Below are positions 9,143 through 46,934 of a DNA stretch of 64,000 bases, in pieces. Each line of letters begins with the position of its first letter. Position 1 is the stretch's first letter. A model generated the notes under the pieces. That model searched no databases and was not told the DNA's origin. It saw only the letters and a list, made by a program, of their open reading frames with translations. This DNA is from an uncultured Bacteroidaceae bacterium. GTDB lineage: Bacteria > Bacteroidota > Bacteroidia > Bacteroidales > GCA-2748055. The translations under genes were made by a program, and so were the position numbers. The stretch spans positions 1,111 to 65,110 of the forward strand of contig CAYVTV010000001.1 in assembly GCA_964454295.1 (NCBI GenBank). Reading direction: 5' to 3'.

Positions 9143-9958
9143 ATGAATATTTATATAAGAATATATTTTAAGCTGTATTATTTACTTGCCAATTTTATTT
9201 TGACTAAAGAATCAGTGATTTTACCTCCTGGTTATCTTGATAAGAAAAACATTTTCATTTATTTTGATTATGAAAGAGAATTTGGCGGCAATAATATCTT
9301 TATTTCAGATAAAGATATTATTTACATACTGGATATACTCGACCAATACAATATTAAAACCACCTGGTTTACTATAGGTAAAATATTTGAACATTATCCT
9401 GAAACTATAAAAGAAATAATTAAGCGGGGTCATGAGGTTGGTTCACATAGTTATATGCATCGTGCTCCTGTAAAAACATTAAATTACCAGGTAAGAAGAG
9501 ACTTTGAAGATTTTAAAAAAGTATCTGAAAAATACGTTAATGTAAAAGGATTTCATTCACCTAACGGAAAGTGGGACCTCTCCATGTTAAAACACTTAAA
9601 GAGACAAGGTTTTCTTTATGACGTTATATATCAACGTAATGATGAAAATGAGAATATTTCTTTTATTGGATTATGGTGTAAGAAATGGTTGTTAAGGTTC
9701 TATACACTGGGTGATGATTGGGCACTATTATATAGGGATAATTTGAATAAAGAAGAAGCATTCGATCATTTTTTAAGTTTATACAGTAAGTTAAAACCTG
9801 GTAAATTACGCGGTATTGGGTTTCATCCCTGGGTACTTTTTACAAATGACAGTATTTTAGAGGGATTCAAAATGTTCCTGCAATATTTAAGCCAGCAAAA
9901 TAGTATAAACATACATAGAGCTGAATTTTATGCAATTATGTGTTTAAAGGAAAGGTAA
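9143..9958 (+). CDS. Polysaccharide deacetylase (NodB-homology / CE4) family protein
   Basis: TWFTIGKIFEHYPETIKEIIKRGHEVGSHSYMH resembles the NodB motifs. Confidence 0.7.
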   Translation: MNIYIRIYFKLYYLLANFILTKESVILPPGYLDKKNIFIYFDYEREFGGNNIFISDKDIIYILDILDQYNIKTTWFTIGKIFEHYPETIKEIIKRGHEVGSHSYMHRAPVKTLNYQVRRDFEDFKKVSEKYVNVKGFHSPNGKWDLSMLKHLKRQGFLYDVIYQRNDENENISFIGLWCKKWLLRFYTLGDDWALLYRDNLNKEEAFDHFLSLYSKLKPGKLRGIGFHPWVLFTNDSILEGFKMFLQYLSQQNSINIHRAEFYAIMCLKER

Positions 9959-9981
9959 CTGCTAATTCCTTAACTTAATAA

Positions 9982-10941
9982 ATGATTTCATTTATAATAA
10001 TAGGCTTAAATGAAGGATGGAAGCTGGAGTTATGCTTTAATAGTGTACAAAAGACCATAAAACAAAATTCATATATTAAGTCAGAAGTAATTTATGTTGA
10101 TTCAAATTCAACGGACAATAGTATTGAAATCGCAAAAAAATTTAGTTCAATAAAAATATATAAATTAACTGGAGATTGTAATGCTGCCATTGCAAGAAAT
10201 TTAGGTGCAAGTAAAGCAACCGGAGATATATTATTTTTTATTGATGGTGATATGGAGATTGAAACCGATTTTCTCAAAAATGTTATTAATCAAAATGGCA
10301 AGCTGTGTTATGAGTTTATAGGTGGATATTACATAGGGAATTATTATAATGATTATTGGGAAATAACTTATTCCAGACAATTCCCTCCTGCAACGAGAAT
10401 GAAAGCAGATTTTTTTGAAGCATTTACCGGAGGATTATTTATTGTTTCAAAAGAAAAATGGGACTTGGTGGGGGGTATGAAGAACTACATGTATGGGGGA
10501 GAAGATCCAGATTTTGCATTAAGACTTGCAGATGAGGGTATTTACAAATTGTGGATTAACAAGCTTATGGCTGTTCATCATACTTTAAAAGATATCCATA
10601 ATTCCAGTTATACATATTTTATTAAAAAAAGAAGCTTAAGTGGAAGAATTTTGCTATACCGTGAGAATTTCTTTTCAAAGCATGGTTTCAGACGGATGAT
10701 ACGAAATGAATATATGTCATTATTTTTGTTCATAACCATTATATTAGCAGGGTATGATTGCTTAATATTTTTATTTGCATTAGGTGTATATTTTTTTGGA
10801 TTATTAATGAGAACAATAAGAAAATATAGACAAATTATCAGGATCCCTCTTATGATTTTTAAAGATATTGTTTTTATATCAGGTTTTTTTACTTATTGGC
10901 CTAATAAAAAACTTGAAATCACTTATGAAGAAATAGAATAA
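9982..10941 (+). CDS. Glycosyltransferase family 2 with a C-terminal TM region
   Basis: ISFIIIGLNEG...YVDSNSTDNS...FFIDGDM. The C-terminal segments are hydrophobic. Confidence 0.8.
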   Translation: MISFIIIGLNEGWKLELCFNSVQKTIKQNSYIKSEVIYVDSNSTDNSIEIAKKFSSIKIYKLTGDCNAAIARNLGASKATGDILFFIDGDMEIETDFLKNVINQNGKLCYEFIGGYYIGNYYNDYWEITYSRQFPPATRMKADFFEAFTGGLFIVSKEKWDLVGGMKNYMYGGEDPDFALRLADEGIYKLWINKLMAVHHTLKDIHNSSYTYFIKKRSLSGRILLYRENFFSKHGFRRMIRNEYMSLFLFITIILAGYDCLIFLFALGVYFFGLLMRTIRKYRQIIRIPLMIFKDIVFISGFFTYWPNKKLEITYEEIE

Positions 10942-12102: not shown

Positions 12103-13847
12103 AACATCTTTCACAAAACAAAAAATGGTATATTTCGAATATTCATGGTCTTTTTAATCATGGTGTAAATTCATTCGGGTTTTTTTCAAATCTCGAATCT
12201 AAATCTAAAGAAAAGATCGGTGTATTTATTGATGGATATGTAATTCCACGCTTATCTGTTCATGAAAAATATACCGGCAAAACACAATATGAATTAATTC
12301 GGGAACTTTATGCAAGTTACAAAAGCAACATGATTGATTATATCAAAGGCTCATTTATAATCATTATTTTCTTTGAAAACCAGGTTGAGATTTTTAGTGA
12401 CCGACATAATACAAAAAAGTACTTCATTTACAGGCAAAATAATTCTTTCTTAATTTCTAATTCAGTTAAATTAATCTCAGAAAAAATCAGTCTTGAGTTT
12501 TCTCCTGAAAATGCTGCACTTTATTGTCTTATGGATCACTTTACTGGTGAACAGACTCTTTTTAGTAATCTAAATCAAAGTTTACCGGCAACTTATTTGG
12601 TATTCAATGAGGAAATTAAATGTAGTCAATATTGGTTGCCTAAAGACCTTTTTAACCGCAATCAGAAAAAAATAAGAACAAGTGAATTTGCAATTAACTG
12701 GAGTTCAATAATCAAAGCTTACATTGATTTTCTTAAACCCGTTGAAACAGGAATAACATTAACGGGTGGAAATGATAGCAGAATGGTACTTGCCGCCTTG
12801 TTGAGAAATGGAATAAAACCAAAAATTTTTACTTTTGGTAATCCCTGTTCGGCTGATGGATATATTGCTAGAAAAGTTGCCAACGCTCTTGAAATAGATA
12901 ATAATATTCATTTTGTTTCTACTCCTACAAAAGATTGGTTTAGTGAAAAATCAAAAAGAATCATCAGGGAGGGAAATTTGTTGGTAAATATTCATCGTGC
13001 ACACAGGCTTGATGCTATTGAATGCGAAAAAAAACTAAATCCTGATCTAAATATGGTTTTTACAGGCTTGGTTGGAGGTGAATATATTAAAGGATCTGGC
13101 AATAATGGTCAGGTTATACCTGAGATTTTGCATAAATTCAAAAAATGTAAAAATAAAAATAGACAAATCAAACTGATTTCCAGGGAATTGGAAAATTCAG
13201 GTATTAAACAAGACTCATTAAATATTAACGTAATCTATGATCATTTTAAAAAAATTGATGAAGCCGGAAAAAATTTTTCAGAAAAACAAAGACAATTTAT
13301 TTATACATACTATTATTATGCAGTAGCTCACCATACACAAGATCCAATTATGTTTTCCCTTTACATTCCATATACGGTCAATCCGTTTATGGATATTGAT
13401 TTTCTTGATATGCTTGCCTGTACAAAGTTTTGGTTTGTAAATAATAAATATTCTTTTTTTAAAAGGCTATGGCATTCTTATCTCCCTGTTAAAGTAACAG
13501 ATTTACTATTCAATAAATTGTCTGATATTCCTTATGCTAAAAAAGGTTCTTATACAGGAAAGGATATGTTGTACAATCCTTTGTTATATTTAATAAAGAG
13601 GTTAACATATTTAATAAATCCAAAACATTCCATCTTCCCTCAAAATTTTCCTATGCAAGATTGGATATATCAATTTACTCAAGAAGAAATTAAAGCGATT
13701 CATCCACACCTAAAAGAATTATTTAATATTGAAATTCTTAATAATCGTTTGAACGAAATAAAATCTCAAACCACGGAAGATGCATGGCATGTTATTACAA
13801 ATCCAATAAACCTTTCTTTAAATCTAAAATATTATTTAGAAGAATAA
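12099..13847 (+). CDS. Asparagine synthase-like PP-loop amidoligase (no N-terminal Cys nucleophile)
   Basis: PP-loop motif LTGGNDSRMVLAAL. The N-terminus MKHLSQ... lacks the Cys2 of glutamine-hydrolysing AsnB. ATGA overlap with capA. Confidence 0.7.
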   Translation: MKHLSQNKKWYISNIHGLFNHGVNSFGFFSNLESKSKEKIGVFIDGYVIPRLSVHEKYTGKTQYELIRELYASYKSNMIDYIKGSFIIIIFFENQVEIFSDRHNTKKYFIYRQNNSFLISNSVKLISEKISLEFSPENAALYCLMDHFTGEQTLFSNLNQSLPATYLVFNEEIKCSQYWLPKDLFNRNQKKIRTSEFAINWSSIIKAYIDFLKPVETGITLTGGNDSRMVLAALLRNGIKPKIFTFGNPCSADGYIARKVANALEIDNNIHFVSTPTKDWFSEKSKRIIREGNLLVNIHRAHRLDAIECEKKLNPDLNMVFTGLVGGEYIKGSGNNGQVIPEILHKFKKCKNKNRQIKLISRELENSGIKQDSLNINVIYDHFKKIDEAGKNFSEKQRQFIYTYYYYAVAHHTQDPIMFSLYIPYTVNPFMDIDFLDMLACTKFWFVNNKYSFFKRLWHSYLPVKVTDLLFNKLSDIPYAKKGSYTGKDMLYNPLLYLIKRLTYLINPKHSIFPQNFPMQDWIYQFTQEEIKAIHPHLKELFNIEILNNRLNEIKSQTTEDAWHVITNPINLSLNLKYYLEE

Positions 13848-17242: not shown

Positions 17243-17318
17243 GACTTTCTCCAGCAATTTTAACTACCAACAATGTTTTAAACAGATTGTCTATGATCCA
17301 TGGTATAATGTTTAACAA

Positions 17319-18410
17319 ATGAACATCCTCATCGACATAGGGCACCCCGCTCACGTCCACTACTACCGCAACCTTGCCAACGAGCTGGTTCAACGCGGCC
17401 ATGAAGTAATATGGACAGTTAAAGAAATTCATGTGGCTAAAAAATTACTGGATCATTACGGATTCGCCTATACCGTTTTCCCGAAAAAGTCGGATAAAAT
17501 TTTTGGGAAAGCATGGAGGCAACTCCAATATAATATTAAACTTTATCGGATCTGTCGGAAAGAAAAAATCAACTTAGCCATTGGCACTTCAGTCAGCGCA
17601 GTGCATGTATCATTAATCTCTACCGTTAAATCCATTGTTTTTGATGATGATGACGATGCTGTACAGCCATTTATCACTAAATACGTTAATCCATTTGCTG
17701 ATGCCCTCGTATCACCGGAAGCTTTGAAAGGTAAACGAAAAAGAAAAGACACCATTTATTATCCGGGTTACCATGAACTGGCATATCTGCATCCGAAACG
17801 CTTTTCTCCCGACCCCGCTGTATTAAAAGATGCCGGCCTTACGCCCGGCGATACTTTCTTCATCATGCGTTTCAATGCCTTTAAGGCACACCACGATGTG
17901 GGTATCAACGGCCTTTCCATTAAACAAAAACTGGAACTTATTAAATTGCTGAAACCTCACGGAAAAATTTTCATCACTACCGAACGGGATATCGAACCGG
18001 AATTAAAAGAATTCCAACTGAAAATAAATCCCGAAAAAATCCACTCTTTAATGGCTTTTACCACACTTTTTCTCGGCGATAGCCAGACAATGACCTCCGA
18101 AGCCGCCGTACTTGGAATCCCTTCCCTCAGATGTAACTCATTTGCAGGCCGTATTTCATACCTGGAAGAAGAAGAACATACTTACGGCTTAACATTTGGA
18201 TTTAAACCGGAAGATTTTCTAAAAATGCTTGCTAAATTAAAGGAACTGCTCTCTATGCCTGACTTACAAGTGGAATTTCAAAAACGCAGGCAGAATATGT
18301 TGAATGACAAAATTGATGTAACAGCTTTTTGGCTGTGGTTTATTGAAAATTATTATGAATATCGATCAATAAATCTTGATAATCATGATTTTTGGGCTCA
18401 ATTCAAGTAA
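17319..18410 (+). CDS. DUF354-family protein (GT-B-like, commonly paired with wecB)
   Basis: 363-aa ORF with N-terminus MNILIDIGHPAHVHYYRNLANEL. A degraded paralog lies at 22349..23094. Confidence 0.7.
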   Translation: MNILIDIGHPAHVHYYRNLANELVQRGHEVIWTVKEIHVAKKLLDHYGFAYTVFPKKSDKIFGKAWRQLQYNIKLYRICRKEKINLAIGTSVSAVHVSLISTVKSIVFDDDDDAVQPFITKYVNPFADALVSPEALKGKRKRKDTIYYPGYHELAYLHPKRFSPDPAVLKDAGLTPGDTFFIMRFNAFKAHHDVGINGLSIKQKLELIKLLKPHGKIFITTERDIEPELKEFQLKINPEKIHSLMAFTTLFLGDSQTMTSEAAVLGIPSLRCNSFAGRISYLEEEEHTYGLTFGFKPEDFLKMLAKLKELLSMPDLQVEFQKRRQNMLNDKIDVTAFWLWFIENYYEYRSINLDNHDFWAQFK

Positions 18411-19764: not shown

Positions 19765-20913
19765 ATGAAAATCCTCTCCGTCGTCGGCGCCCGTCCCAAC
19801 TTCATGAAAATTGCCCCTTTTATACGGGCAATTTCCGTTTATAATGAAAAAGCTGATAAAAGGCAGGCTGTTGAACATATCCTGGTTCATACCGACCAGC
19901 ACTATGATGATAATATGTCGCGGGTATTTTTCAAAGACCTTTCCATACCAAAACCAGATATTAACCTAAGTATTGGTTCAGGAAGTCATGCAGAACAGGT
20001 GGGTAATACCATGATAGCCTTTGAAAAAGTATTGCGGGAACTAAAACCCGACTGGGTGGTAGTAGTGGGAGACGTAAATGCCACACTGGCCTGTTCAGTT
20101 ACCGCGAAAAAAGAACTGGTAAAATGTGCACATATCGAAGCCGGCTTGCGGAGCAGGGATATGAGCATGCCGGAAGAAATAAACCGGCTTGTTACCGACA
20201 ACCTGTGCGACCTGCTTTTTACTCCCGACCGCCTGTCAACACAAAACCTGCGCACTGAAGGTGTGCCGGAAGAAAAAATTAAGTTCGTTGGGAATATCAT
20301 GATCGATACCCTCGAATTGTACAGAGAAAAAGCAGGAATGAAAGACCTTAAGGAAATTGTCGGGAAAAGTATCAATACTAAAATCAACCCTCTTGAAATA
20401 AAAGATGAAAATTTTATGGTTACCACTCTTCACCGGCCTTCCAATGTAGATGTACCCGAAGTTCTCTCTGCCCTGGTTCATTTTTTCACCCAAACGGTCT
20501 CCGGTGATCTCCCACTGATCTGGCCTGTCCACCCCCGTACACGAAAACAACTGGAACTATTCGGGTTATGGGATACATTGTTCAGCTGTAAAAATATAAT
20601 CATTACCGAACCTCTTGGCTATCTTGATATGCTCCGCCTTAATATGGGGGCTAAAGCCATTCTCACCGACAGCGGCGGACTCCAGGAAGAATGCACCATC
20701 CTGGGTACCCCCTGCCTTACCCTCCGTTGGAATACCGAACGCCCGGTTACCCTTACCACCCACGGAGGGGCAAGCGTGCTTACCGGTAATGATATTAACC
20801 GGATAAAGGAGGAATTCCAAATAGCCCTAAATAAACAGCGTAAACCGGTGAGGCCGGAATTGTGGGACGGGAAGACGGCAGAAAGATGCCTTGAAGAAAT
20901 TGTCTCAAATTAA
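19765..20913 (+). CDS. wecB: UDP-N-acetylglucosamine 2-epimerase (non-hydrolysing)
   Basis: MKILSVVGARPNFMKIAPF..., HTDQHYD, GSGSHAEQ, VGDVNATLA and TDSGGLQEE are hallmark WecB motifs. Confidence 0.9.
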   Translation: MKILSVVGARPNFMKIAPFIRAISVYNEKADKRQAVEHILVHTDQHYDDNMSRVFFKDLSIPKPDINLSIGSGSHAEQVGNTMIAFEKVLRELKPDWVVVVGDVNATLACSVTAKKELVKCAHIEAGLRSRDMSMPEEINRLVTDNLCDLLFTPDRLSTQNLRTEGVPEEKIKFVGNIMIDTLELYREKAGMKDLKEIVGKSINTKINPLEIKDENFMVTTLHRPSNVDVPEVLSALVHFFTQTVSGDLPLIWPVHPRTRKQLELFGLWDTLFSCKNIIITEPLGYLDMLRLNMGAKAILTDSGGLQEECTILGTPCLTLRWNTERPVTLTTHGGASVLTGNDINRIKEEFQIALNKQRKPVRPELWDGKTAERCLEEIVSN

Positions 20914-20933
20914 ACCCGCATACTATCTTTGAA

Positions 20934-20964
20934 TTACGTAAACTACGTTACGTAAATTACGTAA
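20934..20964. repeat. Three copies of the palindromic octamer TTACGTAA immediately upstream of ORF 20966
   Basis: TTACGTAA occurs at 20934-41, 20948-55 and 20957-64. Confidence 0.8.
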
Positions 20965-20965
20965 T

Positions 20966-21154
20966 ATGAAAAACAGACTTAAGAATTCTTTTATTACAAC
21001 CGGATATATCAGCCCGGAGTATTTTTGTAACCGGCATAGTGAAACATCACGTCTGCTTTTTTATCTTAACTGGTTAATTATTCCTGTGTTGAATGAAGTA
21101 AACATTGAAATTACTACATTTGTTTCAAATGAACTCTACTATGATTTCCTTTAA
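20966..21154 (+). pseudogene. N-terminal remnant (~30 codons) of an ATPase-type gene, followed by unrelated sequence
   Basis: MKNRLKNSFITTGYISPEYFCNRHSETSRL resembles the N-termini of PF01637-like ATPases (F-x-N/D-R-x-x-E-x-x-x-L). The similarity is lost after about codon 30. Confidence 0.3.
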
Positions 21155-22175
21155 AACCGGGAATATTATTGAATCAAAGGCTGATATGCTGGTTAATACC
21201 GTGAACTCCAAAGGAGTCATGGGAAAAGGAATTGCGTTACAATTCAAAGAACATTACCCGGAAAATTTCAAATTATATAAAAGAGCCGTTGAAGAAGGAG
21301 TTGTAAAACCGGGAAAGGTATTTATAGCTAAAATTAACACCCCCCGGGGAGTAAAATACATCGCAAATTTTGCCACTAAAAACCATTGGCGCAATCCTTC
21401 AAGGGTAGAATGGATAAAATCAGGACTTGATGATCTTAAAAAGCAATTGCTTGAACTTCCTGTGAAATCAATAGCTATACCACCGCTGGGTTGCGGGCAC
21501 GGAGGCTTAAAGTGGGAAGTTGTTAAACCACTTATCGTTGATTCCCTGAAGGAAATGAATTTGGAAGTGATCATTCATGAACCCTCAACAATTAGTAAAG
21601 ACACTGCAAAACAAACAACAGTATCTGTTAAACCGAAACTGACTCCCGCACGGGCTATGCTTTTGTTCCTGCTTTATAAATACAGGGCGCTGGGAGAAGA
21701 CATTACTGAGTTTGCCGCTGAAAAACTGTGTTATTTTCTTTACAGGGCTGGGGAAACACAACTGAAACTTGATTTCCGGCCGGGTTACTATGGCCCTTAT
21801 TCAGGCAAAGTAAGGCATGTGCTTTATGCAATGAATGGATATTATTTAAAAGGATTTGAACAAAAAGATGCTAAACCCTTTGATCCGCTCGAGCTGATGG
21901 TTGATAAAAAAAATGAAGTTGATACGTATGTGCAGGAAAACCTCTCCCTTTTTGAAAAAGACAGACTCAATAAAGTGGCATCCCTCATAAATGGTTTTGA
22001 AACCCCTTACGGACTTGAATTACTGGCTACTGTGGATTACATTACGGCAAATAACAATACCAGGGATATCACATCTATTAAGAATACAATAAATGAATGG
22101 TCTGAACGCAAAAAAAATATGTTCACCGAAGACCATATTAAACTTGCATTGGATACGCTGTCCGGATTCTGTTAA
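21141..22175 (+). CDS. darG: DarG-like protein: N-terminal macrodomain (ADP-ribosyl glycohydrolase) plus a C-terminal antitoxin-type domain
   Basis: Macrodomain motifs are present: DMLVNTVNSKGVMGKGIALQFK, ATKNHWRNPS, IPPLGCGHGGL. The C-terminal half (KLCYFLYRAG...YYGPYSGKVRHVLY) resembles antitoxin adaptor domains. The likely start is the Met at 21141 within ORF 21105..22175. Confidence 0.7.
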   Translation: MISFKTGNIIESKADMLVNTVNSKGVMGKGIALQFKEHYPENFKLYKRAVEEGVVKPGKVFIAKINTPRGVKYIANFATKNHWRNPSRVEWIKSGLDDLKKQLLELPVKSIAIPPLGCGHGGLKWEVVKPLIVDSLKEMNLEVIIHEPSTISKDTAKQTTVSVKPKLTPARAMLLFLLYKYRALGEDITEFAAEKLCYFLYRAGETQLKLDFRPGYYGPYSGKVRHVLYAMNGYYLKGFEQKDAKPFDPLELMVDKKNEVDTYVQENLSLFEKDRLNKVASLINGFETPYGLELLATVDYITANNNTRDITSIKNTINEWSERKKNMFTEDHIKLALDTLSGFC

Positions 22176-22204
22176 TTCCCACGGGAAAACATACTGAGAA
22201 GTGA

Positions 22205-22348
22205 GTAGTTAGTTGAAAGTCGAAAGTTGAAAGTTGAAAGTGGGGCTAACTTTTAACTTTATAAACTTTCTACTTTTACTGATTCTACTGATCCACTCAA
22301 CCACTCAACCACCTCCATGGTCTATGGTCCATGGTCTATAGTCCACCA
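22205..22348. repeat. Composite short-tandem-repeat block: (AGTTGAAA)n, its inverted counterpart, (CCACTCAA)n and (CCATGGTCTAT)n
   Basis: agttgaaagtcgaaagttgaaagttgaaagt ... aacttttaactttataaactttc ... ccactcaaccactcaaccac ... catggtctatggtccatggtctatagtcc. Confidence 0.85.
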
Positions 22349-23094
22349 ATGAACCTCCTCATCGACATCGGCCACCCCGCCCACATTCATTATTACCGCA
22401 ATCTTGCCGCTGAACTGGAATTAAAAGGCCATAAAATGAGCTGGACAGTCAAGGATATACCGGTCGCCAAACATTTGCCTGACCATTATGGATTTTCCTA
22501 CACTGTTTTTCCTCAAAAGGTATTTTACCCTGTGAACCCTATTTTATCATGCGTTTCAATGCCTTTAAGGCACATAACGATACAGGAGTGAAAGGCCTGT
22601 CTCTCTCCAACAAAATACAACTCATTGATTTACTCAAACCATACGGGAAAATATTCATCACTACCGAAAGGAACATTGAAGCTGAATTAGAAGAATACCG
22701 GCTAAAAATAAGTCCCGAAAAAATCCACTCATTAATGGCCTTTGCCACCCTGTTTCTCGGCGACAGCCAGACCATGTCCTCCGAAGCCGCCGTACTGGGG
22801 ATTCCTTCCCTGAGATGCAACTCCTTTGCCGGACGTATTTCTTACCTGGAAGAGGAAGAACATAAATACGGATTAACATTCGGATTTAAACCCGAACAAT
22901 TCCCTGAAATGGTCATAAAGCTGAAAGAATTACTCTCCATGCCCAATCTGAAGGAAGAATTTCAGCAAAGGCGGCAAAACATGCTGGCGGATAAGATCGA
23001 TGTCACCTCATTCTGGCTGTGGTTTATTGAAAACTACCCTGAAAGCATATCCATGATTAAAGATGAAAATTCATTCTGGGAGAAATTCAGATAA
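22349..23094 (+). pseudogene. DUF354 paralog with an internal deletion of roughly 115 codons and a frameshift
   Basis: Codons 1-56 (MNLLIDIGHPAHIHYYRNLAAEL...TVFPQK) are in frame 2. They join at about 22520 to the C-terminal half (frame 1, 22525..23094), which is homologous to residues from about 172 onward of 17319..18410. Confidence 0.8.
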
Positions 23095-23290: not shown

Positions 23291-23379
23291 TGATCCCTCT
23301 ACCTCCACTCGATCCCGTGATCCCGTGATAGCGTGATCCCTCTATTCACCCAACCACTCACCCACGTAACCACTCAATC
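23291..23379. repeat. Octamer brick block: (GATCCCGT/GATCCCTC)n followed by (CACCCAAC/CACTCACC/CACGTAAC/CACTCAAT)
   Basis: gatcccgtgatcccgtgatagcgtgatccctc ... cacccaaccactcacccacgtaaccactcaat, ending 1 nt before the wecB-fragment ATG. Confidence 0.8.
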
Positions 23380-23466
23380 ATGAAAATCCTCTCAGTCGTC
23401 GGCGCCCGTCCCAACTTCATGAAAATTGCCCCCTTTATCCGGGCAATTTCCGGTTATAATGAATAA
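23380..23466 (+). pseudogene. 5' fragment of wecB (28 codons then a stop)
   Basis: atgaaaatcctctcagtcgtcggcgcccgtcccaacttcatgaaaattgcc... is nearly identical to the first ~80 nt of wecB at 19765, then ends at a TAA. Confidence 0.85.
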
Positions 23467-23600: not shown

Positions 23601-24466
23601 ATGTATATCAGAAAACAAATATTGCAGGATGCCGGTAAAGAAAGTCTTTTTTTATGGGGCGCCCGGCAGACCGGTAAAAGCACTTTGTTAAAAAAAATGT
23701 TTTCTGATTCACTATGGTTTGATCTTTTGAACTTTTACGTGCGTTAACTCATGGCCTGATACCAAGGCATTATATTTCCAATCACCCGGAAAAATTGATT
23801 TCAGCATATATTGGTAATTATCTGCAGGAAGAGATCATCGCGGAAGCCAGAATAAGAAATATAAGTTCTTTTTCCCGTTTTCTTGAAATGGCTGCTTTTT
23901 CCAACGGAGAAATTGTAAACTACTCAAATATTGCCACTGACTGTGGCGTTAGTGCTCCTACTGTTAAAGAATATTTTCAGATACTCGAAGATACCCTTAT
24001 CGGAAGATTTCTTCCTTCTTTTCAAAAACAACCCAAACGCAGAGTAATTTTGGCGCCAAAGTTTTATTATTTTGATGTGGGGATAGCAAATTATCTGCTA
24101 AAAAGAAAAGTTGTTGAACCCGGCAACGAAGTTTTTGGGAAGGCTTTTGAACATTTTATTTTTCATGAGTTATATGCACATAGCAGCTATTCAGGACTCA
24201 ATTATCCGGTTAAGTTTTGGCGTACTGCATCCGGCATGGAGGTGGATTTCATCCTGGGGGATCATGAGGTTGCCATTGAAGTCAAAGCTACTGATAACGC
24301 AAATTTCCGTCACTTCAGGGGATTAAAAGCTTTTTCCGGTGAATACACAGTTAAAAAACAGATACTGGTAAGCAATGATCCTATGCCGCGTTTTACTGAG
24401 AATATTCTTATTCTTCCATGGAAGGAGTTTCTTGACAGATTGTGGGATGGGGAGATAATCGGATAG
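23601..24466 (+). pseudogene. AAA-ATPase (DUF4143-type) gene with an internal deletion and frameshift
   Basis: The N-terminal 45 codons carry the Walker A motif (GARQTGKSTLLKK) and end at a stop near 23745. The C-terminal part (frame 2, RALTHGLIPRHY...YIGNYLQEEI...EVDFIL) is ORF 23795..24466. The central ATPase core is missing. Confidence 0.75.
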
Positions 24467-24492
24467 GTCGGTGAGGGGAGGAAGTGATTACG

Positions 24493-24610
24493 TGGTTGAA
24501 AGACAAAGTTTGAAAGTTGAAAGTTACGTGGTTGAGTAATTGAGTAATTGAGTAATTGAGTAATTGAGTAATTGAGTAATTGAGTAATTTTACTCAGTAT
24601 ATTGAGTAAA
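24493..24610. repeat. Brick block containing (TTGAGTAA)x7 as a perfect tandem array
   Basis: gtggttgaaag...tttgaaagttgaaagttacgtgg, then TTGAGTAA x7 at 24532-24587, then the inverted unit ttactcag and one more ttgagtaa. Confidence 0.9.
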
Positions 24611-24619
24611 TTGTAAAGC

Positions 24620-25206
24620 ATGTTTGAACGTCAGGAAATAAAACTATTACATCAAAGGGTGAATGAACCCCGGAAATTTATACAGGTACTGATGGGGCCC
24701 CGACAGGTTGGGAAAACTACCCTGGTAACCTGACTACCTTGTCCCATTACCTTCACCTGCTTAATACGGCAGGTTTATTGGGAGGCCTGGAAAAATTTTC
24801 ACTTCACCCTGTCCGTAAGCGTTCATCCAGTCCCAAATTTCAGTTGCATAATACCGCCCTGCTGAGCGCCCAGAGAAGCACCCTGTTTAAAACTATACTG
24901 ACTGACCCGGCAGAATGGGGAAGAATTGTCGAGTCCTCCATCGGGGCATACCTCATTAACCAATCTGTCCGCTCCGGTTTTTCCCTTTATTATTACAGGG
25001 AAAGAAATGACGAGGTGGACTTTATCCTGCAATATGACCATAAAATTATCGCGCTGGAAGTAAAAAGTAACTATTCAGCTAATTATAATAAAGGTCTTGA
25101 AGCATTCAAACAAAAATTCCACCCCGTAAAAACATACCTCGTGGATAATAAAAACCTGCCCTGGAGCGAAGTCTTAAAAATTGATCCGATGGAATTGTTT
25201 TTGTAG
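24620..25206 (+). pseudogene. Second AAA-ATPase (DUF4143-type) gene with an internal deletion
   Basis: The N-terminal 37 codons (MFERQEIKLLHQRV...GPRQVGKTTLVT) end at a stop near 24731. ORF 24739..25206 encodes only the C-terminal DUF4143-like part (YYYRERNDEVDFIL...ALEVKS). Confidence 0.75.
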
Positions 25207-25208
25207 GG

Positions 25209-25358
25209 GGCTGTTTCATAAGTCAAAATATGTTCAACCACGAAGGACACAAAGGATAACACGAAGGTCGCAAAGTATTATATATCAGGCATGTATGCTT
25301 TGTGTCCTTGGTGTTATCCTTAGTGTCCTTTGTGGTTAAAGACACTTATGAGACAGCC
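25209..25358. repeat. Family-1 hairpin repeat, copy A (outward orientation, extended ~150-nt inverted repeat)
   Basis: ggctgtttcataagt...aaccacgaaggacacaaaggataacacgaagg pairs with ccttagtgtcctttgtggtt...acttatgagacagcc. Confidence 0.85.
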
Positions 25359-25495
25359 TCTGCAAGAAAACCCCTGGAATGACGATATGATAATCCGCCG
25401 AACAGAAACCGGCTCGTAATATCGATTGTTTTATTGAGGCGGAAAAGATAAAACTGATTTAAATAAATATACTTGATATATATACAAAAAAGATA

Positions 25496-25503
25496 TACCT
25501 TTG
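25496..25503 (+). promoter_or_regulatory. Bacteroidota -7 promoter motif (TAnnTTTG) for the antitoxin-toxin pair
   Basis: TACCTTTG lies 20 nt upstream of the ATG at 25523, in an AT-rich context. Confidence 0.45.
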
Positions 25504-25522
25504 TAATATAAAAATCTGGCTA

Positions 25523-25753
25523 ATGAAAACAGTTTCATTAAAAATAAACGATTCTATTTTCGGAGAGACAGAAAAAATTCTTTCCCGCATTAAAAAACCC
25601 CGTAACCGTTATATCAACGAGGCAATAGAGTACTATAATAAACTTCAGCGAAAACTGATCCTTGAAAAAAAGCTGAGAACAGAATCAGATATTGTAAGGA
25701 CTGATTCAATGTCTGTACTAAAAGATTTCGAGGAGATTGATTATGCAGGTTAA
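25523..25753 (+). CDS. Ribbon-helix-helix (CopG-like) antitoxin
   Basis: 76-aa ORF (KTVSLKINDSIF...RNRYINEAIEYYN) that overlaps the downstream PemK/MazF gene. Confidence 0.7.
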   Translation: MKTVSLKINDSIFGETEKILSRIKKPRNRYINEAIEYYNKLQRKLILEKKLRTESDIVRTDSMSVLKDFEEIDYAG

Positions 25754-26090
25754 ACAATTTGAGATCTGGATAGCAGATTTAAATCCACAGATTGGTACCG
25801 AACCTGGTAAATCCCGACCTGTTTTAACAATACAGACAAATTTGCTTAATAAGATCCCACACCCGTCGACAATAATTTGTCCGATTACAACAAATGTTAA
25901 AAAGGATACTGAAATTTTAAGAGTACATATTAAAAAAGGCATTGCAGGTCTTAATCAGGCCTGCGATATTATGATCGACCAGATCAGGGCAATAGATAAT
26001 AACCGGTTGACAAAACGCCTTGGTGTACTCCCTGATGAGTTAATCGAAAAAGTTAAGGAGAATATTCAAATTGTTCTTGATATTATATAA
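25737..26090 (+). CDS. mazF: PemK/MazF-family type II toxin (mRNA interferase)
   Basis: FEIWIADLNPQIGTEPGKSRPVLTIQTN...ICPITT...IMIDQIRAID matches the MazF/PemK pattern. Confidence 0.85.
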   Translation: MIMQVKQFEIWIADLNPQIGTEPGKSRPVLTIQTNLLNKIPHPSTIICPITTNVKKDTEILRVHIKKGIAGLNQACDIMIDQIRAIDNNRLTKRLGVLPDELIEKVKENIQIVLDII

Positions 26091-26872
26091 TGCCCGACTT
26101 CACCCTCAACACCTACCACACCCTCCTCACCGTCCTCCGCGCACAGGACTATTCCTTCCACCCCATGGAAGAGCTACCCTTTACCCTTCCCGGAAAGATC
26201 ATCGTCCTCCGTCATGATGTAGACCTCCGCCCGCACCGCGCCCTGCAGACCGCCCTCCTGGAAAACCGCCTCGGCATCAGCGGAACATACTACTTCCGCA
26301 TGGTGCCGCGATGTTTCAATACCGACATCGTGAAGCAAATCCGCGACCTCGGCCATGAAATAGGATACCACTACGAAGACCTTACCCTTACCAGGGGGAA
26401 TATCGATGCGGCTTACACATCTTTCTGCACCCATCTCAATACCCTGCGGCAGTACTACCCGGTAAAAACCGCCGCCATGCACGGCAGTCCCGCCAGCCGC
26501 CACGACAGCCGCGATATATGGACATCATACAGCTACCGCGATCAGGGCATCATCTGCGAACCCTACTTCGATACCGACTTCAGCAAGGTACTCTACCTTA
26601 CCGACACCGGCCGCCGCTGGGACGGATGGAAAGTGAACGTGCGCGATAAAATCACTGGAAAAGAATATGGCCGCGACAACAATATATCCTTCCGCTCCAC
26701 CCGCCATATCATCGCCGCCGCCAACGCCCTCACCCTCCCCGATAAGATCATGTTCAACATCCACCCCCAACGCTGGACCGGCAAACCCCTGCCGTGGATG
26801 AAAGAACTGATCCTGCAGAATGCAAAGAATATAATAAAAAGAGTAATCATCTCCCTTCGTGTTCCTTCGTGA
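26090..26872 (+). CDS. Polysaccharide deacetylase-like protein (CE4-superfamily-like)
   Basis: IVLRHDVDLRP...GISGTYYFR...GHEIGYHYEDL resembles deacetylase-fold proteins found in capsule loci. Its start ATG overlaps the mazF stop (TAATG). Its last codons run into hairpin repeat B. Confidence 0.5.
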   Translation: MPDFTLNTYHTLLTVLRAQDYSFHPMEELPFTLPGKIIVLRHDVDLRPHRALQTALLENRLGISGTYYFRMVPRCFNTDIVKQIRDLGHEIGYHYEDLTLTRGNIDAAYTSFCTHLNTLRQYYPVKTAAMHGSPASRHDSRDIWTSYSYRDQGIICEPYFDTDFSKVLYLTDTGRRWDGWKVNVRDKITGKEYGRDNNISFRSTRHIIAAANALTLPDKIMFNIHPQRWTGKPLPWMKELILQNAKNIIKRVIISLRVPS

Positions 26873-26934
26873 ATACCTTTGTGTACCTTCGTGGTTAAAC
26901 ACGTAATGAGGTTAACCACGAAGGAACACGAAGG
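26854..26934. repeat. Family-1 hairpin repeat, copy B
   Basis: ccttcgtgttccttcgtg...accttcgtggttaa / acacgtaatgag / gttaaccacgaaggaacacgaagg. Confidence 0.85.
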
Positions 26935-30523: not shown

Positions 30524-30528
30524 CGCCC

Positions 30529-30628
30529 CCTTCGTGTACCTTAGTGACATCCTTCGTGTCCTTTGTGGTTAAATACGTACGGAGATTAACCACGAAGGAC
30601 ACAAAGGGTTACACCAAGGTACACGAAG
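30529..30628. repeat. Family-1 hairpin repeat, copy E
   Basis: ccttcgtgtaccttagtgacatccttcgtgtcctttgtggttaa / atacgtacggag / attaaccacgaaggacacaaagg... Confidence 0.85.
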
Positions 30629-31631
30629 TATCTTTAAGAAAAATCCTTCCGGTTTCCCTTATCACCGCTTCCATCCTTTCAAACTCAATCCCCACCGCCC
30701 CCTTCACCTTCTCATTCGAAAAATACACCTGCCTTATTCCTGCGCGTGCCGTCTCCGGGGTGATAACACGTGTTCCGGTGAATAGCGACCTTACCCCATC
30801 CAGCCGTGCAGCAGTCATGGCCATGAAAGGAGTAGCTTCTATGGCAGGAGGGCGGACATTCAGGCTGGCGGCGATCATCTCAAAGACCTCCTTATAGGAG
30901 AAGTTCTCCGCGGAGATGATGAACCTTTCCCCCGAGATATCACTGTTCATGAGGCGTATCATGCAGTCCGACACATCCTTTACCGACACGAAGCCCGTCA
31001 CACCACAGGTATAATACCTGAGTCCCTTGTAAATGGTGGTGAACATGGAAGAGGAACCCTTGTCCCAGAAGCCGGGACCAAAGATGATGGAAGGGTTCAC
31101 TATCACCGCATTAAGGCCCTCTTCCATACCCCGCCATACTTCCATTTCCGATTTGAACTTGCTGATGGCATACCCTGTGTTTTTCTTGTCGGGCCGCCAG
31201 ATCATATTCTCGGTAACAGCTTCTCCCCGGGCGGCTTCACCCAGGGCTGAGGTGGAACTCACATGACACAACTTTTCAATGCCCAGGTCGAGACATGCAT
31301 TGACAATGTTGGCCGTTCCTGTCACGTTATTAACGATCATCCGGTTGCGGTCGCGCGGGTTGAACGACACAAACGCGGCGGCATGGTAAAGCCGGGAAGT
31401 TCCCTCCAGCGCATCGGCAACAGAATCGTAATCCAGGATATCAACATCCACCCATTCAATACGTTCAAAAAGAGAATCAGGATCAGAGGTGTAGCAGGAA
31501 AATACATGCCGTATGGCTTCGGTATTGCTGGTTTCCCTCTTTAACGCCCGTATATTTTCCGTTGAAGAAGAAAGAAGATCAAACAATACCCTGGATCCAA
31601 GCAGGCCTGTGGCGCCGGTGATGGTGATCAT
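30609..31631 (-). CDS. NAD-dependent epimerase/dehydratase family (SDR) protein
   Basis: MITITGATGLLGSRV glycine-rich NAD motif and a YAISK catalytic motif. The last codons lie in hairpin repeat E. Confidence 0.8.
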   Translation of the reverse strand: MITITGATGLLGSRVLFDLLSSSTENIRALKRETSNTEAIRHVFSCYTSDPDSLFERIEWVDVDILDYDSVADALEGTSRLYHAAAFVSFNPRDRNRMIVNNVTGTANIVNACLDLGIEKLCHVSSTSALGEAARGEAVTENMIWRPDKKNTGYAISKFKSEMEVWRGMEEGLNAVIVNPSIIFGPGFWDKGSSSMFTTIYKGLRYYTCGVTGFVSVKDVSDCMIRLMNSDISGERFIISAENFSYKEVFEMIAASLNVRPPAIEATPFMAMTAARLDGVRSLFTGTRVITPETARAGIRQVYFSNEKVKGAVGIEFERMEAVIRETGRIFLKDTSCTLV

Positions 31632-31664: not shown

Positions 31665-31764
31665 CTTCGTGTTCCTTTGTGAAATCCTTCGTGTACCTTC
31701 GTGGTTAAATACGTATTGAGATTAACCACAAAGGACACGAAGGATTTCACGAAGGACACGAAGG
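31665..31764. repeat. Family-1 hairpin repeat, copy F (arms of ~43 nt, near-perfect)
   Basis: cttcgtgttcctttgtgaaatccttcgtgtaccttcgtggttaa / atacgtattgag / attaaccacaaaggacacgaaggatttcacgaaggacacgaag. Confidence 0.9.
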
Positions 31765-31779
31765 GAAGTCTATTTTTTC

Positions 31780-31787
31780 TATCTTTG
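31780..31787 (+). promoter_or_regulatory. Bacteroidota -7 promoter motif (TAnnTTTG) upstream of gmd
   Basis: TATCTTTG lies 20 nt upstream of the gmd ATG (31807). Confidence 0.45.
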
Positions 31788-31806
31788 TTATTTAAACAAC
31801 AATCAA

Positions 31807-32910
31807 ATGTCAAAAACAGCACTCATCACCGGCATTACCGGGCAGGACGGAGCGTACCTCGCAGAATATCTGCTGGAAAAAGGGTACAAAGTTCATGGTA
31901 TCAAGCGGCGCAGCTCCATGTTCAACACGGGAAGGATTGATCATCTGTACCAGGATCCGCATGAGGAGGAGAAGAAGTTCATCCTTCATTACGGTGACCT
32001 TACCGACTCAACCAACCTGATACGTATCGTGCAGGAGGTTCAGCCGGATGAAATATATAATCTGGGAGCACAGAGTCACGTCCAGGTGTCGTTCGAAACT
32101 CCCGAATATACGGCTAATTCTGATGGTCTGGGTACCCTTCGGATGCTCGAAGCCATACGCCTGTTAGGCCTCGAAAAGAAAACAAAATTTTACCAGGCCT
32201 CCACCAGTGAGCTTTTTGGGAAGGTGCAGGAAGTGCCGCAAACCGAAACAACCCCGTTTTATCCGAGAAGCCCGTATGGTGTGGCAAAACTCTACGGCTA
32301 CTGGATAACGGTGAACTACAGGGAGGCATATAATATTTTTGCCTGCAACGGCATATTGTTCAACCACGAGTCGCCCATACGCGGCGAGACATTTGTCACC
32401 CGCAAGATCACCCGCGCCGTAGCACAGATAGTGCTGGGTATGAAAGATAAGCTGTATATGGGTAACCTCTCGGCCCGACGCGACTGGGGACATGCAAAGG
32501 ACTATGTGAAAGCCATGCATATGATCATGCAACAGGATGTAGCTGAGGATTTTGTCATCGCCACAGGCATCATGACCGAAGTGAGGGAGTTTATACGTAT
32601 GGCCTTCCTTGAAGCAGGAGTGGAAGTTGAATTCCGCGGGAAGGGCACGGACGAAAAGGGATATATTGCCGGAATACATCAGTTACCGGACAACAGCACA
32701 CTGGGTAAAGATGCGGTGGGCAGGTGCGTGGTGGAAGTCGACACCGACTACTTCCGTCCCGCCGAAGTGGACATGCTTGTGGGTAACGCGGAAAAGGCAC
32801 GACAGAAGCTGGGATGGAAACCGCAATATACCCTGCACGACCTGGTGAAGGAGATGGTAAAAGGCGACCTGCGGCTTATAGGCAGGGAGAAGATAATGCA
32901 AGGCAAATAA
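31807..32910 (+). CDS. gmd: GDP-mannose 4,6-dehydratase
   Basis: [41 protein letters not shown] and the full-length pattern are typical of Gmd. Confidence 0.95.
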
Positions 32911-32914
32911 AACT

Positions 32915-33014
32915 CCTTAGTGTCCTTTGTGTCAGCCTTCGTGTCCTTCGTGGTTAACCTCATTACGTATTTAACCACAATGGACACAAAGGTATATCAC
33001 AAAGGACACGAAGG
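32915..33014. repeat. Family-1 hairpin repeat, copy G (loop in inverted orientation)
   Basis: ccttagtgtcctttgtgtcagccttcgtgtccttcgtggttaa / cctcattacgtat / ttaaccacaatggacacaaagg...cacgaagg. Confidence 0.85.
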
Positions 33015-33031
33015 AATACAATTATTACACT

Positions 33032-34147
33032 ATGATATCAAAAAATGAAAAAATCTACCTCGCCGGCCATACCGGCCTCGTTGGCTCCGCCCTCATGCGC
33101 AAGCTTACCGACAAGGGGTATGCCGGTATCGTCAGCAGCACTATTGACGAGCTCGACCTCAAAGATAATGTCAGGGTCGATGAGTTCTTCAGGAAAGAGA
33201 AGCCGGCATATGTCTTTCTTGCCGCTGCCAAAGTGGGAGGTATTGTCGCCAACAACACCTACAGGGCCGACTTTATCTATGAGAACATTCAGATACAGAA
33301 CAATGTGATCATCAACGCATGGAAGCATGGGGTGAAGAAGCTCATCTTCCTGGGCAGCTCCTGTATATACCCTAAGAATGCACCCCAGCCGCTGAAAGAG
33401 GAATACCTCCTTACCTCTGAACTGGAATATACGAACGAGCCGTATGCCATAGCCAAGATCGCCGGCATAAAGATGTGCGAAGCTTTCAACCTGCAGTATG
33501 GTACCAACTTCCTCTGCGTGATGCCTACCAACCTTTTCGGCCCCAACGATAATTTCGACCTGGAAAGATCGCATGTCATGCCCGCCATCATACGCAAGCT
33601 CCACCTGGGGAAATGCCTTATGAATAACGATGTGCCCGCACTGCGAAGAGACTTCAGCAGGTACCCGGTGGAAGGTATCGACGGCAGCGCAGAGGAAGAG
33701 GAGATAATGAAAAAACTGTCAAAATACGGGATTTCCCGCGACAATAACGGAGTGGTTGTACAATTCTGGGGAACGGGAACACCCCGCCGCGAGTTCCTTC
33801 ATTCTGACGATGTGGCCGATGCCATTGTGTTTATCTTTGAAAACCTGGATTTTAACGACCTTATAGAAGATCCTTCCATGCTGAAGGCAGAGGTGAAAAA
33901 TATACGCAATACCCATATCAATATCGGAAGGGGAGAGGATATAGCCATAAAAGACCTGGCAACCCTCATTGCAGAGATCACCGGGTTCAAAGGCAGAGTT
34001 GAATGGGATACTTCCCGTCCCGACGGAACCATGCAGAAGCTTATGGATGTTTCAAAATTAACCCGGCTGGGATGGAAACCCAAACTGAGCCTGAAAGAAG
34101 GAATAGAGAAGGTTTATGAATTCTATTCTCCTTCGTGTCCTTCGTGA
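33032..34147 (+). CDS. fcl: GDP-L-fucose synthase (GDP-4-keto-6-deoxymannose 3,5-epimerase/4-reductase)
   Basis: IYLAGHTGLVGSAL, AAAKVGGI, SSCIYPK and YAIAK motifs. It sits directly downstream of gmd. The last ~6 codons lie in hairpin repeat H. Confidence 0.9.
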   Translation: MISKNEKIYLAGHTGLVGSALMRKLTDKGYAGIVSSTIDELDLKDNVRVDEFFRKEKPAYVFLAAAKVGGIVANNTYRADFIYENIQIQNNVIINAWKHGVKKLIFLGSSCIYPKNAPQPLKEEYLLTSELEYTNEPYAIAKIAGIKMCEAFNLQYGTNFLCVMPTNLFGPNDNFDLERSHVMPAIIRKLHLGKCLMNNDVPALRRDFSRYPVEGIDGSAEEEEIMKKLSKYGISRDNNGVVVQFWGTGTPRREFLHSDDVADAIVFIFENLDFNDLIEDPSMLKAEVKNIRNTHINIGRGEDIAIKDLATLIAEITGFKGRVEWDTSRPDGTMQKLMDVSKLTRLGWKPKLSLKEGIEKVYEFYSPSCPS

Positions 34148-34244
34148 AACCCTTAGTGTCCTTTGTGGTTAAATACGTATTGAGGTTAACCACAAAGGAC
34201 ACGAAGTACAACACAAAGGTACACAAAGGTTAATACGTAACCAC
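34130..34244. repeat. Family-1 hairpin repeat, copy H
   Basis: ccttcgtgtccttcgtgaaacccttagtgtcctttgtggttaa / atacgtattgag / gttaaccacaaaggacacgaag... Confidence 0.85.
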
Positions 34245-34260: not shown

Positions 34261-35340
34261 ATGTCCACCTCCTCCCTCCTTCGCGACCTCATCCCCGGCC
34301 TGCTCCCCCTCCTGGCCTTCATCATCGCCGATGAGATATGGAGTACGGCAACAGCCTTGTATATAGCTATTGTATTGGGCTTTGCGGAGCTTATCATCGT
34401 CTTTATCCGCTCCGGCAGGTTCGAAAAATTCATCCTCATGGATATCGGCATACTCACTGTCCTGGCGCTGGTGTCGGTATTTATGGACAATGACGTTTTC
34501 TTTAAACTCAAACCGGTGGTAATTGAAGGGATACTGCTTGTAATGCTTGGCTTTTCCGGTTATGGGAAAAAGAATTATATCATGGAAATGTCGGGACGCT
34601 ATTTTAAAAACATAAAACTTTATCCTTCTGCAGCGGTAAAACTCACAAGAAGCCTCCGTGTGTTATTCTGGCTGATACTCGCCCACACCCTGCTCGTCCT
34701 GGCAAGCGTATTTTTTATGTCTACACGGGCATGGGGATTTATCAGCGGCGTAATGTTTTACCTGCTTATACTGGTATACTTCGCTTACGAGATGCTGAGC
34801 AAACGCTGGCAAAACCGGAAATACACGGGAAAAGAGGTAGTACCACTTGTGGATGAGAACGGAGCCGTCATTGGAAAAGCTCTGCGCACTGAACTGCATT
34901 ACAATCCGGAAAAGAAACTTCTGCACCCTGTTGTGCACCTGCACGTTTTTAACACGAAAGGGGAAATTTACCTGCAGAAACGGCCGGATAACAAGTTGAT
35001 ACAACCCGGTAAATGGGACACTGCCGTGGGGGGCCATATTTCATGGGGAGAAACACTCGAAGAAAGCCTGAGACGGGAGACAGCCGAAGAAATAGGACTG
35101 AAGGAATTTAAACCCGTGTTTGTGAGGAAGTATATCTGGGAAACAGACGCTGAAAAGGAACTGGTGTATATGTTCGTTACGGTGACAGATGTTCAGCCGG
35201 TATTTAACCCTGAAGAAGTAGCTGAAGGTAAATTCTGGTCGGTCGGAACCATCGAACATAACCTGAACAAGGGCATATTCTCTTCCAACCTGGAGAAGGA
35301 AATAGGAGTATTAAAAAAATCCGGGTTTTTAAATAAATAG
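34261..35340 (+). CDS. Membrane-domain / NUDIX hydrolase fusion protein
   Basis: The N-terminal ~185 aa contain about 5 TM helices. The C-terminal part has a Nudix box (GGHISWGETLEESLRRETAEEIGL). Confidence 0.7.
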   Translation: MSTSSLLRDLIPGLLPLLAFIIADEIWSTATALYIAIVLGFAELIIVFIRSGRFEKFILMDIGILTVLALVSVFMDNDVFFKLKPVVIEGILLVMLGFSGYGKKNYIMEMSGRYFKNIKLYPSAAVKLTRSLRVLFWLILAHTLLVLASVFFMSTRAWGFISGVMFYLLILVYFAYEMLSKRWQNRKYTGKEVVPLVDENGAVIGKALRTELHYNPEKKLLHPVVHLHVFNTKGEIYLQKRPDNKLIQPGKWDTAVGGHISWGETLEESLRRETAEEIGLKEFKPVFVRKYIWETDAEKELVYMFVTVTDVQPVFNPEEVAEGKFWSVGTIEHNLNKGIFSSNLEKEIGVLKKSGFLNK

Positions 35341-35352
35341 TAATATATCAAT

Positions 35353-35461
35353 CCTTTGTGTACCTTTGTGAATCCCTTCGTGTCCTTCGTGGTTATTCTC
35401 ATTACGTATTTAACCACGAAGGACACGAAGGGATTCACAAAGGTACACAAAGACACAAAGG
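35353..35461. repeat. Family-1 hairpin repeat, copy I (loop inverted)
   Basis: cctttgtgtacctttgtgaatcccttcgtgtccttcgtggtta / ttctcattacgtat / ttaaccacgaaggacacgaagggattcacaaaggtacacaaag. Confidence 0.85.
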
Positions 35462-39950: not shown

Positions 39951-39965
39951 ATTTTCGGGGGGGGG

Positions 39966-41932: not shown

Positions 41933-41955
41933 TAAAAAATGATATTTTTATAACC

Positions 41956-42056: not shown

Positions 42057-42065
42057 GAGACGTTA

Positions 42066-42671: not shown

Positions 42672-42686
42672 AATATTATTATTTTT

Positions 42687-46904: not shown

Positions 46905-46934
46905 TACATCATCCTCATTTAAATCAAAGACTCC

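Follow-up and report, generated by a model that had tools for sequence, protein, structure and literature searches.

A DarTG2-type locus with an intact darG and a remnant of darT, probably a decaying module, in an uncultured Bacteroidaceae bacterium

A stretch of 64,000 nucleotides (nt) from an uncultured Bacteroidaceae bacterium (GenBank assembly GCA_964454295.1, contig CAYVTV010000001.1, positions 1,111 to 65,110), hereafter the window, was examined around a gene for a DarG antitoxin, which an initial annotation had described as an orphan with no DarT toxin gene next to it. The locus is best read as a degraded DarTG2-type toxin-antitoxin and defence module in which an intact antitoxin was recently orphaned by decay that took the toxin first, and we give this reading a probability of roughly 80%. 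It is treated as a darTG module with a truncated toxin gene rather than as a DarG without a neighbour because the 3' end of darT is still present upstream of darG and an intact darT occupies the same place in a sister strain. The orphan description therefore stands in that the window holds no functional darT, but the antitoxin was not without a neighbour from the outset. The features on which this reading depends are listed by window coordinates and strand.

21141–22175, + strand: darG, 344 amino acids (aa), intact DNA ADP-ribosyl glycohydrolase antitoxin of the DarTG2 type (NF048014, PADLOC, 98% identity to protein P0001)
21141–21587, + strand: DarG macrodomain, residues 1–149, with N22, K29, K80, H82, W83 and G119 (PDB 5M31 and 5M3I, Pfam Macro)
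21702–22160, + strand: DarG C-terminal domain, residues 188–340 (Mycobacterium tuberculosis DarG C-terminal region, PDB 7YK3 chain B, E 1.2e-20)
21077–21154, + strand: darT 3' remnant, last 25 codons and stop, with all catalytic parts gone (tblastn, DarT hidden Markov model (HMM), pairwise alignment)
21059–21076, no strand: junction zone from ATPase-derived to darT-derived DNA, at about darT codon 189, with CTTAA common to the sister darT (alignments)
20966–21058, + strand: AAA ATPase 5' remnant, 31 codons (MKNRLKNSFITTGYISPEYFCNRHSETSRLL; tblastn to intact ATPase N-termini)
20966–21154, + strand: chimeric open reading frame (ORF) of 62 aa, the ATPase N-terminus joined in frame to the DarT C-terminus and ending at the native darT stop (ORF translation)
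20934–20964, + strand: triple TTACGTAA palindrome, operator-like, with spacers of 6 and 1 nt (copies at 20934, 20948 and 20957)
19765–20913, + strand: wecB, of the UDP-GlcNAc 2-epimerase family; final intact gene in the polysaccharide cassette, specific to this strain, that now flanks the module on the left (Pfam Epimerase_2 recorded for an identical protein)

The identity of the antitoxin was established by several models. The darG product scored 386.8 bits against NCBIfam NF048014 (antitoxin_DarG, an equivalog model with a cut-off of 250), with residues 2–340 matching positions 1–338 of the 338 in the profile, and the PADLOC DarG model matched at 3.5e-116. Pfam Macro was found at residues 18–130 (4.4e-18), and residues 1–149 matched the solved structures of the Thermus aquaticus (5M31, E 2.4e-41) and M. 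tuberculosis (5M3I, E 4.7e-39) DarG macrodomains. The DarG-like identity first proposed from motifs alone was thus borne out, and the quoted motifs (NTVN..GVMGKGIALQFK, ATKNHW, PPLGCGHGGL and KLCYFLYRAG..YYGPYSG) are all present. In an alignment to T. aquaticus DarG, the lysine of ATKNHW, put forward earlier as a candidate catalytic residue, is K80. K80 is the catalytic lysine of TaqDarG and its mutation inactivates the enzyme, while mutation of N22, K29 or G119 likewise impairs it (PMC5179494). These four residues as well as H82 and W83 are invariant across an alignment of 17 DarG sequences, and the window protein keeps every column that is invariant in that alignment. The match of residues 188–340 to the M. 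tuberculosis C-terminal domain likewise agrees with the proposal of a domain of the toxin-binding type. A Panacea/DUF4065 domain, suggested as a profile to try on this region, was not found in a Pfam scan at E values up to 1, which returned only Macro. The ORF end at 22175 had been placed correctly, but the length of 345 aa had not; homologues, which all open with MI(S/T/I)(F/Y)K, set the start at the ATG at 21141, giving 344 aa. On the sequence evidence it is fully supported that the protein is a genuine, intact DarG with K80 and the C-terminal DarT-binding domain conserved. By its sequence the module belongs to the DarTG2 subfamily, because its antitoxin is of the macrodomain kind (PMC11543638). 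An exact look-up of the window DarG sequence returned no record, and the closest database protein, P0001 (98% identical), was used as its reference relative.

The relative proved informative for the toxin. P0001 is found on two JGI metagenome contigs, Ga0068711_1000267 and Ga0209269_1000340 (L001 and L002), where a gene for a complete 213-aa DarT (in L001 at 9373–10014) lies directly upstream of the gene for the 98% identical DarG and overlaps it by 14 nt; this DarT covers all 201 positions (1–201) of the Pfam DarT profile (PF14487/DUF4433) at 6.1e-56. In a comparison of the sister DarT with the window, its residues 189–213 matched the DNA upstream of darG at 72% identity (tblastn, E 3e-6), and an HMM built from seven DarT sequences found the same remnant at positions 189–214 (E 0.015). 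The coding part of the remnant (21077–21151) corresponds to DarT residues 189–213 and is followed by the native stop codon (21152–21154), which overlaps the darG start by 14 nt, as in L001. The remnant reads IIPVLNEVNIEITTFVSNELYYDFL in the window and IIPVLNEEKMELTTFVCKEFYYDFL in the sister strain, followed in both by an identical stop overlapping the start of darG. Beyond the remnant, no DarT was detected in the 64 kb using tblastn with three DarT proteins or an unfiltered HMM search of all six frames. The statement that no DarT-like ORF lies nearby accordingly holds for an intact gene, throughout the window, but overlooked the last 25 darT codons and stop at 21077–21154.

The window and L001 are colinear at 96–99% identity from window position 21076 (L001 9936) to about 28440, a distance of more than 7 kb (BLASTN). 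To the left of 21076, no homology to L001 of the 98% class was found. The polysaccharide cassette on this side is unlike that of the sister strain, with homologous genes only 67–78% identical, and the protein encoded at window position 1876 is known only from samples carrying the truncated allele. The two loci have in common the right flank, including a DUF354 relic, a wecB fragment, DUF4143 fragments, a MazF/PemK pair and a Bac_transf gene, while the sister locus has an intact 213-aa DarT, a different polysaccharide cassette and a scrambled second darG upstream. This second copy (L001 8329–8967) is about 95% identical to the window darG and is arranged as codons ~6–94, the spacer that follows darG and the last 90 nt of darG. 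It is fused upstream to the C-terminal fragment of a MazF/PemK-like toxin, and its darT has also been lost.

A darT gene is the rule among the relatives of this antitoxin. Contig look-ups of homologues gave 14 sampled relatives (55–98% identical, from Bacteroidota, Chlorobiaceae and other sources), and in 14/14 darG is immediately preceded by a gene of 193–214 aa whose product either matches DarT or is clearly a DarT by its sequence. The two genes mostly overlap by 14 nt, and L144 has a 2-nt gap. The orphan state was seen in 0/14. A scan of a collection of genome contigs with the DarG protein gave five distant loci, four of them macrodomain-only matches, and so provided no base rate.

The stop codon of wecB (20913) and the darG ATG are separated by 227 nt, as reported initially, and all but the last 14 nt of the 62-aa chimeric ORF lies in this gap. 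A Pfam scan of the ORF gave no match, and its two halves could be identified only by setting them against the DarT of the sister strain and against ATPase genes that are intact. Residues 1–31 match the N-termini of seven intact ATPases, which confirms the suggestion of an ATPase remnant of about 30 codons; they are 61–68% identical to the ATPases of ~377 aa in metagenome loci L108, L062 and L131 (E 6e-12 to 9e-11, tblastn) and 42–65% identical to four more distant ATPases (tblastn, among the metagenome loci listed). A representative intact ATPase matched Pfam AAA_14 at 32.7 bits (cut-off 27), and its alignment to ATPase_2 starts at residue 20 with the first position of the profile. The similarity extends to the DNA, where the window can be aligned to intact ATPase genes from the palindromes through to about codon 28.

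The three TTACGTAA copies in the gap, already noted as a triple palindrome, are among four such octamers in the whole window, where 0.88 would be expected from shuffled sequence. A similar triplet is found 1–90 nt before the start of a homologous ATPase gene in seven metagenome loci (L039, L054, L055, L062, L085, L108 and L131) among the matches listed. The 6/1 spacing is shared by four of the seven, with 7/2 in L085, and the ATPases of the seven loci are 29% to 100% identical to the representative. Judged from sequence, the triple palindrome and the ATPase fragment are not separate elements but together make up the 5' end of a single, unrelated ATPase gene. The palindromes were also considered as a native operator of darG and this was rejected, since they accompany homologous ATPase genes at seven loci.

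The junction is not confined to one assembly. The 62-aa ORF and the surrounding DNA are 100% identical in five further contigs (L011 to L015; four from ENA and one from JGI). One more contig (L010) is 99.98% identical but stops at window position 21011, and so spans wecB, the palindromes and the first 15 ATPase codons only. The truncated allele persists in the environment; samples that carry it are ENA ERZ27252295-304, JGI 3300033170 and 3300033178, and SRR10872647.

The following course of events accounts for the locus. The ancestral module was arranged as in the sister strain, with a 213-aa DarT gene overlapping darG by 14 nt. In this lineage a different polysaccharide cassette adjoins the module, with the right-hand end of the foreign DNA inside darT, and an illegitimate join has connected the palindromic leader and the first ~31 ATPase codons to the last ~25 darT codons. 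The toxin thereby lost every catalytic part, while darG was spared, with its conserved K80, ADP-ribose loop and C-terminal domain. The join may have arisen during exchange of the adjacent polysaccharide region, where the only viable end-points would have been those destroying darT and sparing darG, because cells with DarT but without DarG die. Loss of the toxin with retention of the antitoxin would be the predicted asymmetry, as toxin loss should be harmless and loss of the antitoxin alone lethal. Orphan antitoxins arising from toxin loss are common in bacterial populations (PMC7192599), and decay that begins with the toxin is an established pattern. The possibility raised initially that this DarG is a relic thus gains direct evidence from the darT remnant and the intact darT of the sister strain.

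Candidate signals for expression of darG were sought by scanning for the Bacteroidota -7 promoter consensus TAnnTTTG, and two of the matches are of particular relevance.

20924–20931, + strand: TATCTTTG, a match to TAnnTTTG 2 nt before the palindromes, candidate captured promoter (consensus match)
21115–21122, + strand: TACATTTG, a -7-like box at -26 from the darG ATG and within the darT remnant, candidate internal darG promoter (consensus match)

In all, three matches were found on the + strand of the 227-nt gap (20924, 21020 and 21115) where about 0.1 would be expected, given 29 matches on this strand across the 64 kb, a figure uncorrected for AT-richness. The box at 21115 is the same in L001 and lies within a conserved stretch of 13 nt, the rest of the remnant being 17% diverged. 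A TAnnTTTG box is located at -63 from the darG ATG in L003, L004, L136 and L139 and at -26 in the window and L001, and none was found in the darT 3' end of L144 and L145, two loci that are not Bacteroidota-like. This suggests that the box in Bacteroidota darT 3' ends may be an internal promoter for the antitoxin. A sigma-70 promoter scan gave 0 sites with a model not built for Bacteroidota promoters, and was not used as evidence. The darG gene is probably still expressed; the candidate signals are the -7-like box before the palindromes, the second box in the remnant and the overlap of darG with an upstream translated ORF. Its product probably still removes thymidine-linked ADP-ribose from DNA, and the neighbourhood encodes no cognate toxin. 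Most likely it is at present a recent and near-neutral leftover, and any shielding that it gave from a foreign DarT would be incidental.

Several points weigh against so simple an account. Of about 65 nt compared in the remnant, 11 (17%; window 21088–21134) are not those of the sister darT, and divergence is lower around it (1.5% in the next 3.2 kb and 4% at darG synonymous sites). The remnant is far more diverged than the adjacent DNA and, therefore, the history was not one clean deletion from an L001-like allele. The simplest conjecture would be a second darT allele and a recombination breakpoint at the darT/darG overlap; at the single site in the remnant that could be polarised with an outgroup, the derived state is on the sister side. 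Cassette replacement is also deduced from one boundary. The window and sister DarG proteins differ at six amino acids, each at a variable alignment column, and the ratio of non-synonymous to synonymous divergence (pN/pS) of 0.19 is compatible with constraint on darG, but this value comes from 15 nucleotide differences (6 non-synonymous and 9 synonymous) that cannot be assigned to the lineage without darT. The case for darG expression is drawn from promoter-like boxes that are consensus matches only. Finally, a second darT could lie elsewhere in the genome, the search having covered 64 kb.

Among the alternatives, the best supported is that darG has been domesticated as stand-alone immunity, kept by selection under a captured ATPase promoter and operator and clearing ADP-ribose set on DNA by the DarT of a plasmid, competitor or phage; a role in anti-addiction immunity was among the initial suggestions, and we regard this reading as unlikely. 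The gene is fully intact, the same allele is present in assemblies from at least two sources, the chimeric leader is in frame and preserves the overlap of 14 nt, and there are three -7-like boxes upstream. Foreign modules and partnerless enzymes are also on record: full-length DarG homologues are encoded on 102 plasmids, one of them a Bacteroidota plasmid with an adjacent DUF4433 gene, and DarG-like macrodomains without a partner are frequent in phages, hundreds of which encode one. Orphan antitoxin-like enzymes of phages do neutralise DarT (PMC11257639; PMC13309987), and DarT can be countered by non-cognate antitoxins (PMC11543638). However, copies of the truncated allele are all 100% identical and so hold no record of selection since the loss, an in-frame fusion would arise by accident with a 1 in 3 chance, and the absence of orphans from the sampled relatives gives no sign that selection often favours this state. 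Anti-addiction itself has, by the account of PMC11257639, limited experimental backing. A more specific proposal, that the join itself placed darG under the ATPase promoter and palindromic operator, with the in-frame leader ORF preserving translational coupling, and so created a selectively maintained stand-alone DNA de-ADP-ribosylase that immunises against plasmid, phage or competitor DarT, is in our view distinctly doubtful. If true, the rewired darG would be to the chromosome what orphan-antitoxin counter-defences are to phages.

That DarG instead serves a toxin encoded elsewhere, either a second darT copy or a non-canonical ADP-ribosyltransferase, is very improbable; an unlinked, non-canonical toxin had also been suggested initially. 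From the remains of a second darG in the sister contig, the lineage must at some time have had at least two darTG modules, and the unexpected divergence of the remnant may be a sign of several darT alleles in the population. Against this, the tblastn and six-frame searches gave no other DarT signal in the 64 kb, no second DarG was found in the window, and the toxin gene is adjacent to darG in every sampled relative and overlaps it in most. The remaining notions, a housekeeping macrodomain unrelated to DarG, as some database sources imply by labelling homologues 'O-acetyl-ADP-ribose deacetylase', or an assembly chimera at the junction, have next to no probability and are considered refuted, given that the housekeeping models (YmdB/PRK00431-type) scored at best 32.4 bits against a cut-off of 246 and otherwise 11–15 bits against 215–315, that the C-terminal half matches that of M. 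tuberculosis DarG, and that the junction is identical in five independent assemblies.

The locus can be compared with several known systems. As in the DarTG2 systems of T. aquaticus and M. tuberculosis (PMC5179494; PMC11543638), the antitoxin joins a TARG1-like macrodomain (with K80, N22, K29 and G119) to a C-terminal domain for DarT binding; darG still overlaps the darT frame by 14 nt, and the sister strain has the full operon. Unlike them, the window encodes no toxin and the last 25 darT codons are fused to an unrelated ATPase fragment. The orphan antitoxins of the Klebsiella pneumoniae complex (PMC7192599) also lack a functional toxin and have the non-toxin flank in common with a valid pair, but those are small binding proteins, whereas here the antitoxin is a 344-aa enzyme with an exact breakpoint and an intact sister allele. 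The phage protein AdfN (NADAR) and a chimallivirus DarG2-like protein (PMC11257639; PMC13309987) are likewise toxin-free DNA ADP-ribosyl glycohydrolases. They are phage counter-defences with demonstrated activity, while the window DarG, known here from its sequence, is chromosomal, keeps the DarT-binding domain and lies beside what is left of its own toxin gene. The human protein TARG1 (C6orf130) belongs to the same macrodomain clade and shares the position of the catalytic lysine (PDB 4J5R, E 2.4e-6), but it has no C-terminal DarT-binding domain and only distant sequence similarity.

Other remnants are found to the right of darG, beginning with the following features.

22176–22345, no strand: spacer rich in tandem repeats of 7–8 nt, also in the sister contig (repeat search, BLASTN)
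22317–23094, + strand: broken second copy of a DUF354 gene, also in the sister contig (self-BLAST 73–78% identity to 17286–18352; weak Pfam DUF354; colinear with L001)
23380–23466, + strand: wecB 5'-end fragment, 87 nt (94% identical to 19765–19851; in L001 at 12240–12326)

The DUF354 copy and the wecB fragment look, from their sequences, like relics of an earlier end of the polysaccharide cassette. Tandem repeats of 7–8 nt (AGTTGAA, CCACTCAA, TCCATGGTCTATAG and TTGAGTAA x7) fill spacers near the relic genes at 22211–22345, 23311–23340 and 24532–24589. Further to the right are two C-terminal fragments of DUF4143 ATPases (23795–24466 and 24739–25206) and an intact PemK/MazF toxin gene (25737–26090) with a small partner ORF upstream (25523–25753), so that window positions 23795–26090 are a patch of toxin-antitoxin and ATPase remnants beside the polysaccharide locus.

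An imperfect palindromic element of about 105 nt, with the core CCTTCGTGTCCTTTGTGGTTAA ... TTAACCACGAAGGACACAAAGG, was found at 12 or more sites in 22 kb, with matches in both orientations (26854–26934, 30528–30635, 31665–31789, 32909–33015, 34130–34229, 35335–35452, 37721–37780, 39963–40056, 41955–42073, 42686–42779, 46934–47035 and 48832–48931), and is also present in L001 (15765–15873). In sequence it resembles a repetitive extragenic palindromic (REP) element or a miniature inverted-repeat transposable element (MITE). No Rfam match was obtained for the whole window at gathering thresholds, this element included.

The TTACGTAA palindrome is also seen in other settings. A metagenome scan for triplets recovered at least 120 loci. 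The ~377-aa AAA_14/ATPase_2 family retains the triplet even at 29–38% protein identity, which suggests that it is a conserved and possibly autoregulatory operator of this family. At least 88 triplets have 4/4 spacing, and arrays of TTACGTAA-N4 with a period of 12 nt and up to 5–6 copies are widespread in loci L016–L135 among the matches listed (examples are L020 2366–2433, L072 2270–2325 and L082 5389–5456). Among the matches listed, a gene of 56–61 aa starts 8–23 nt from the array in 7/84 periodic-array loci, and a representative of these small proteins is of the Pfam MazE_antitoxin/AbrB type (30.5 bits). Going by this sequence association, the periodic arrays look like an operator array for a small AbrB/MazE-like regulator family.

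On present evidence, the locus is an ordinary decaying module and no new free-standing system. Should the orphan DarG turn out to be expressed and to protect the cell, it would join the few documented cases of a bacterial enzymatic antitoxin retained as immunity. As it stands, the locus offers a clean natural snapshot of the decay of a toxin-antitoxin and defence module: of two strains at 98% identity, one carries a complete darTG and the other a darT cut off at a mapped breakpoint, next to a polysaccharide locus that varies. Where antitoxins appear to be orphans, short toxin remnants and sister alleles should be sought before a stand-alone function is proposed.

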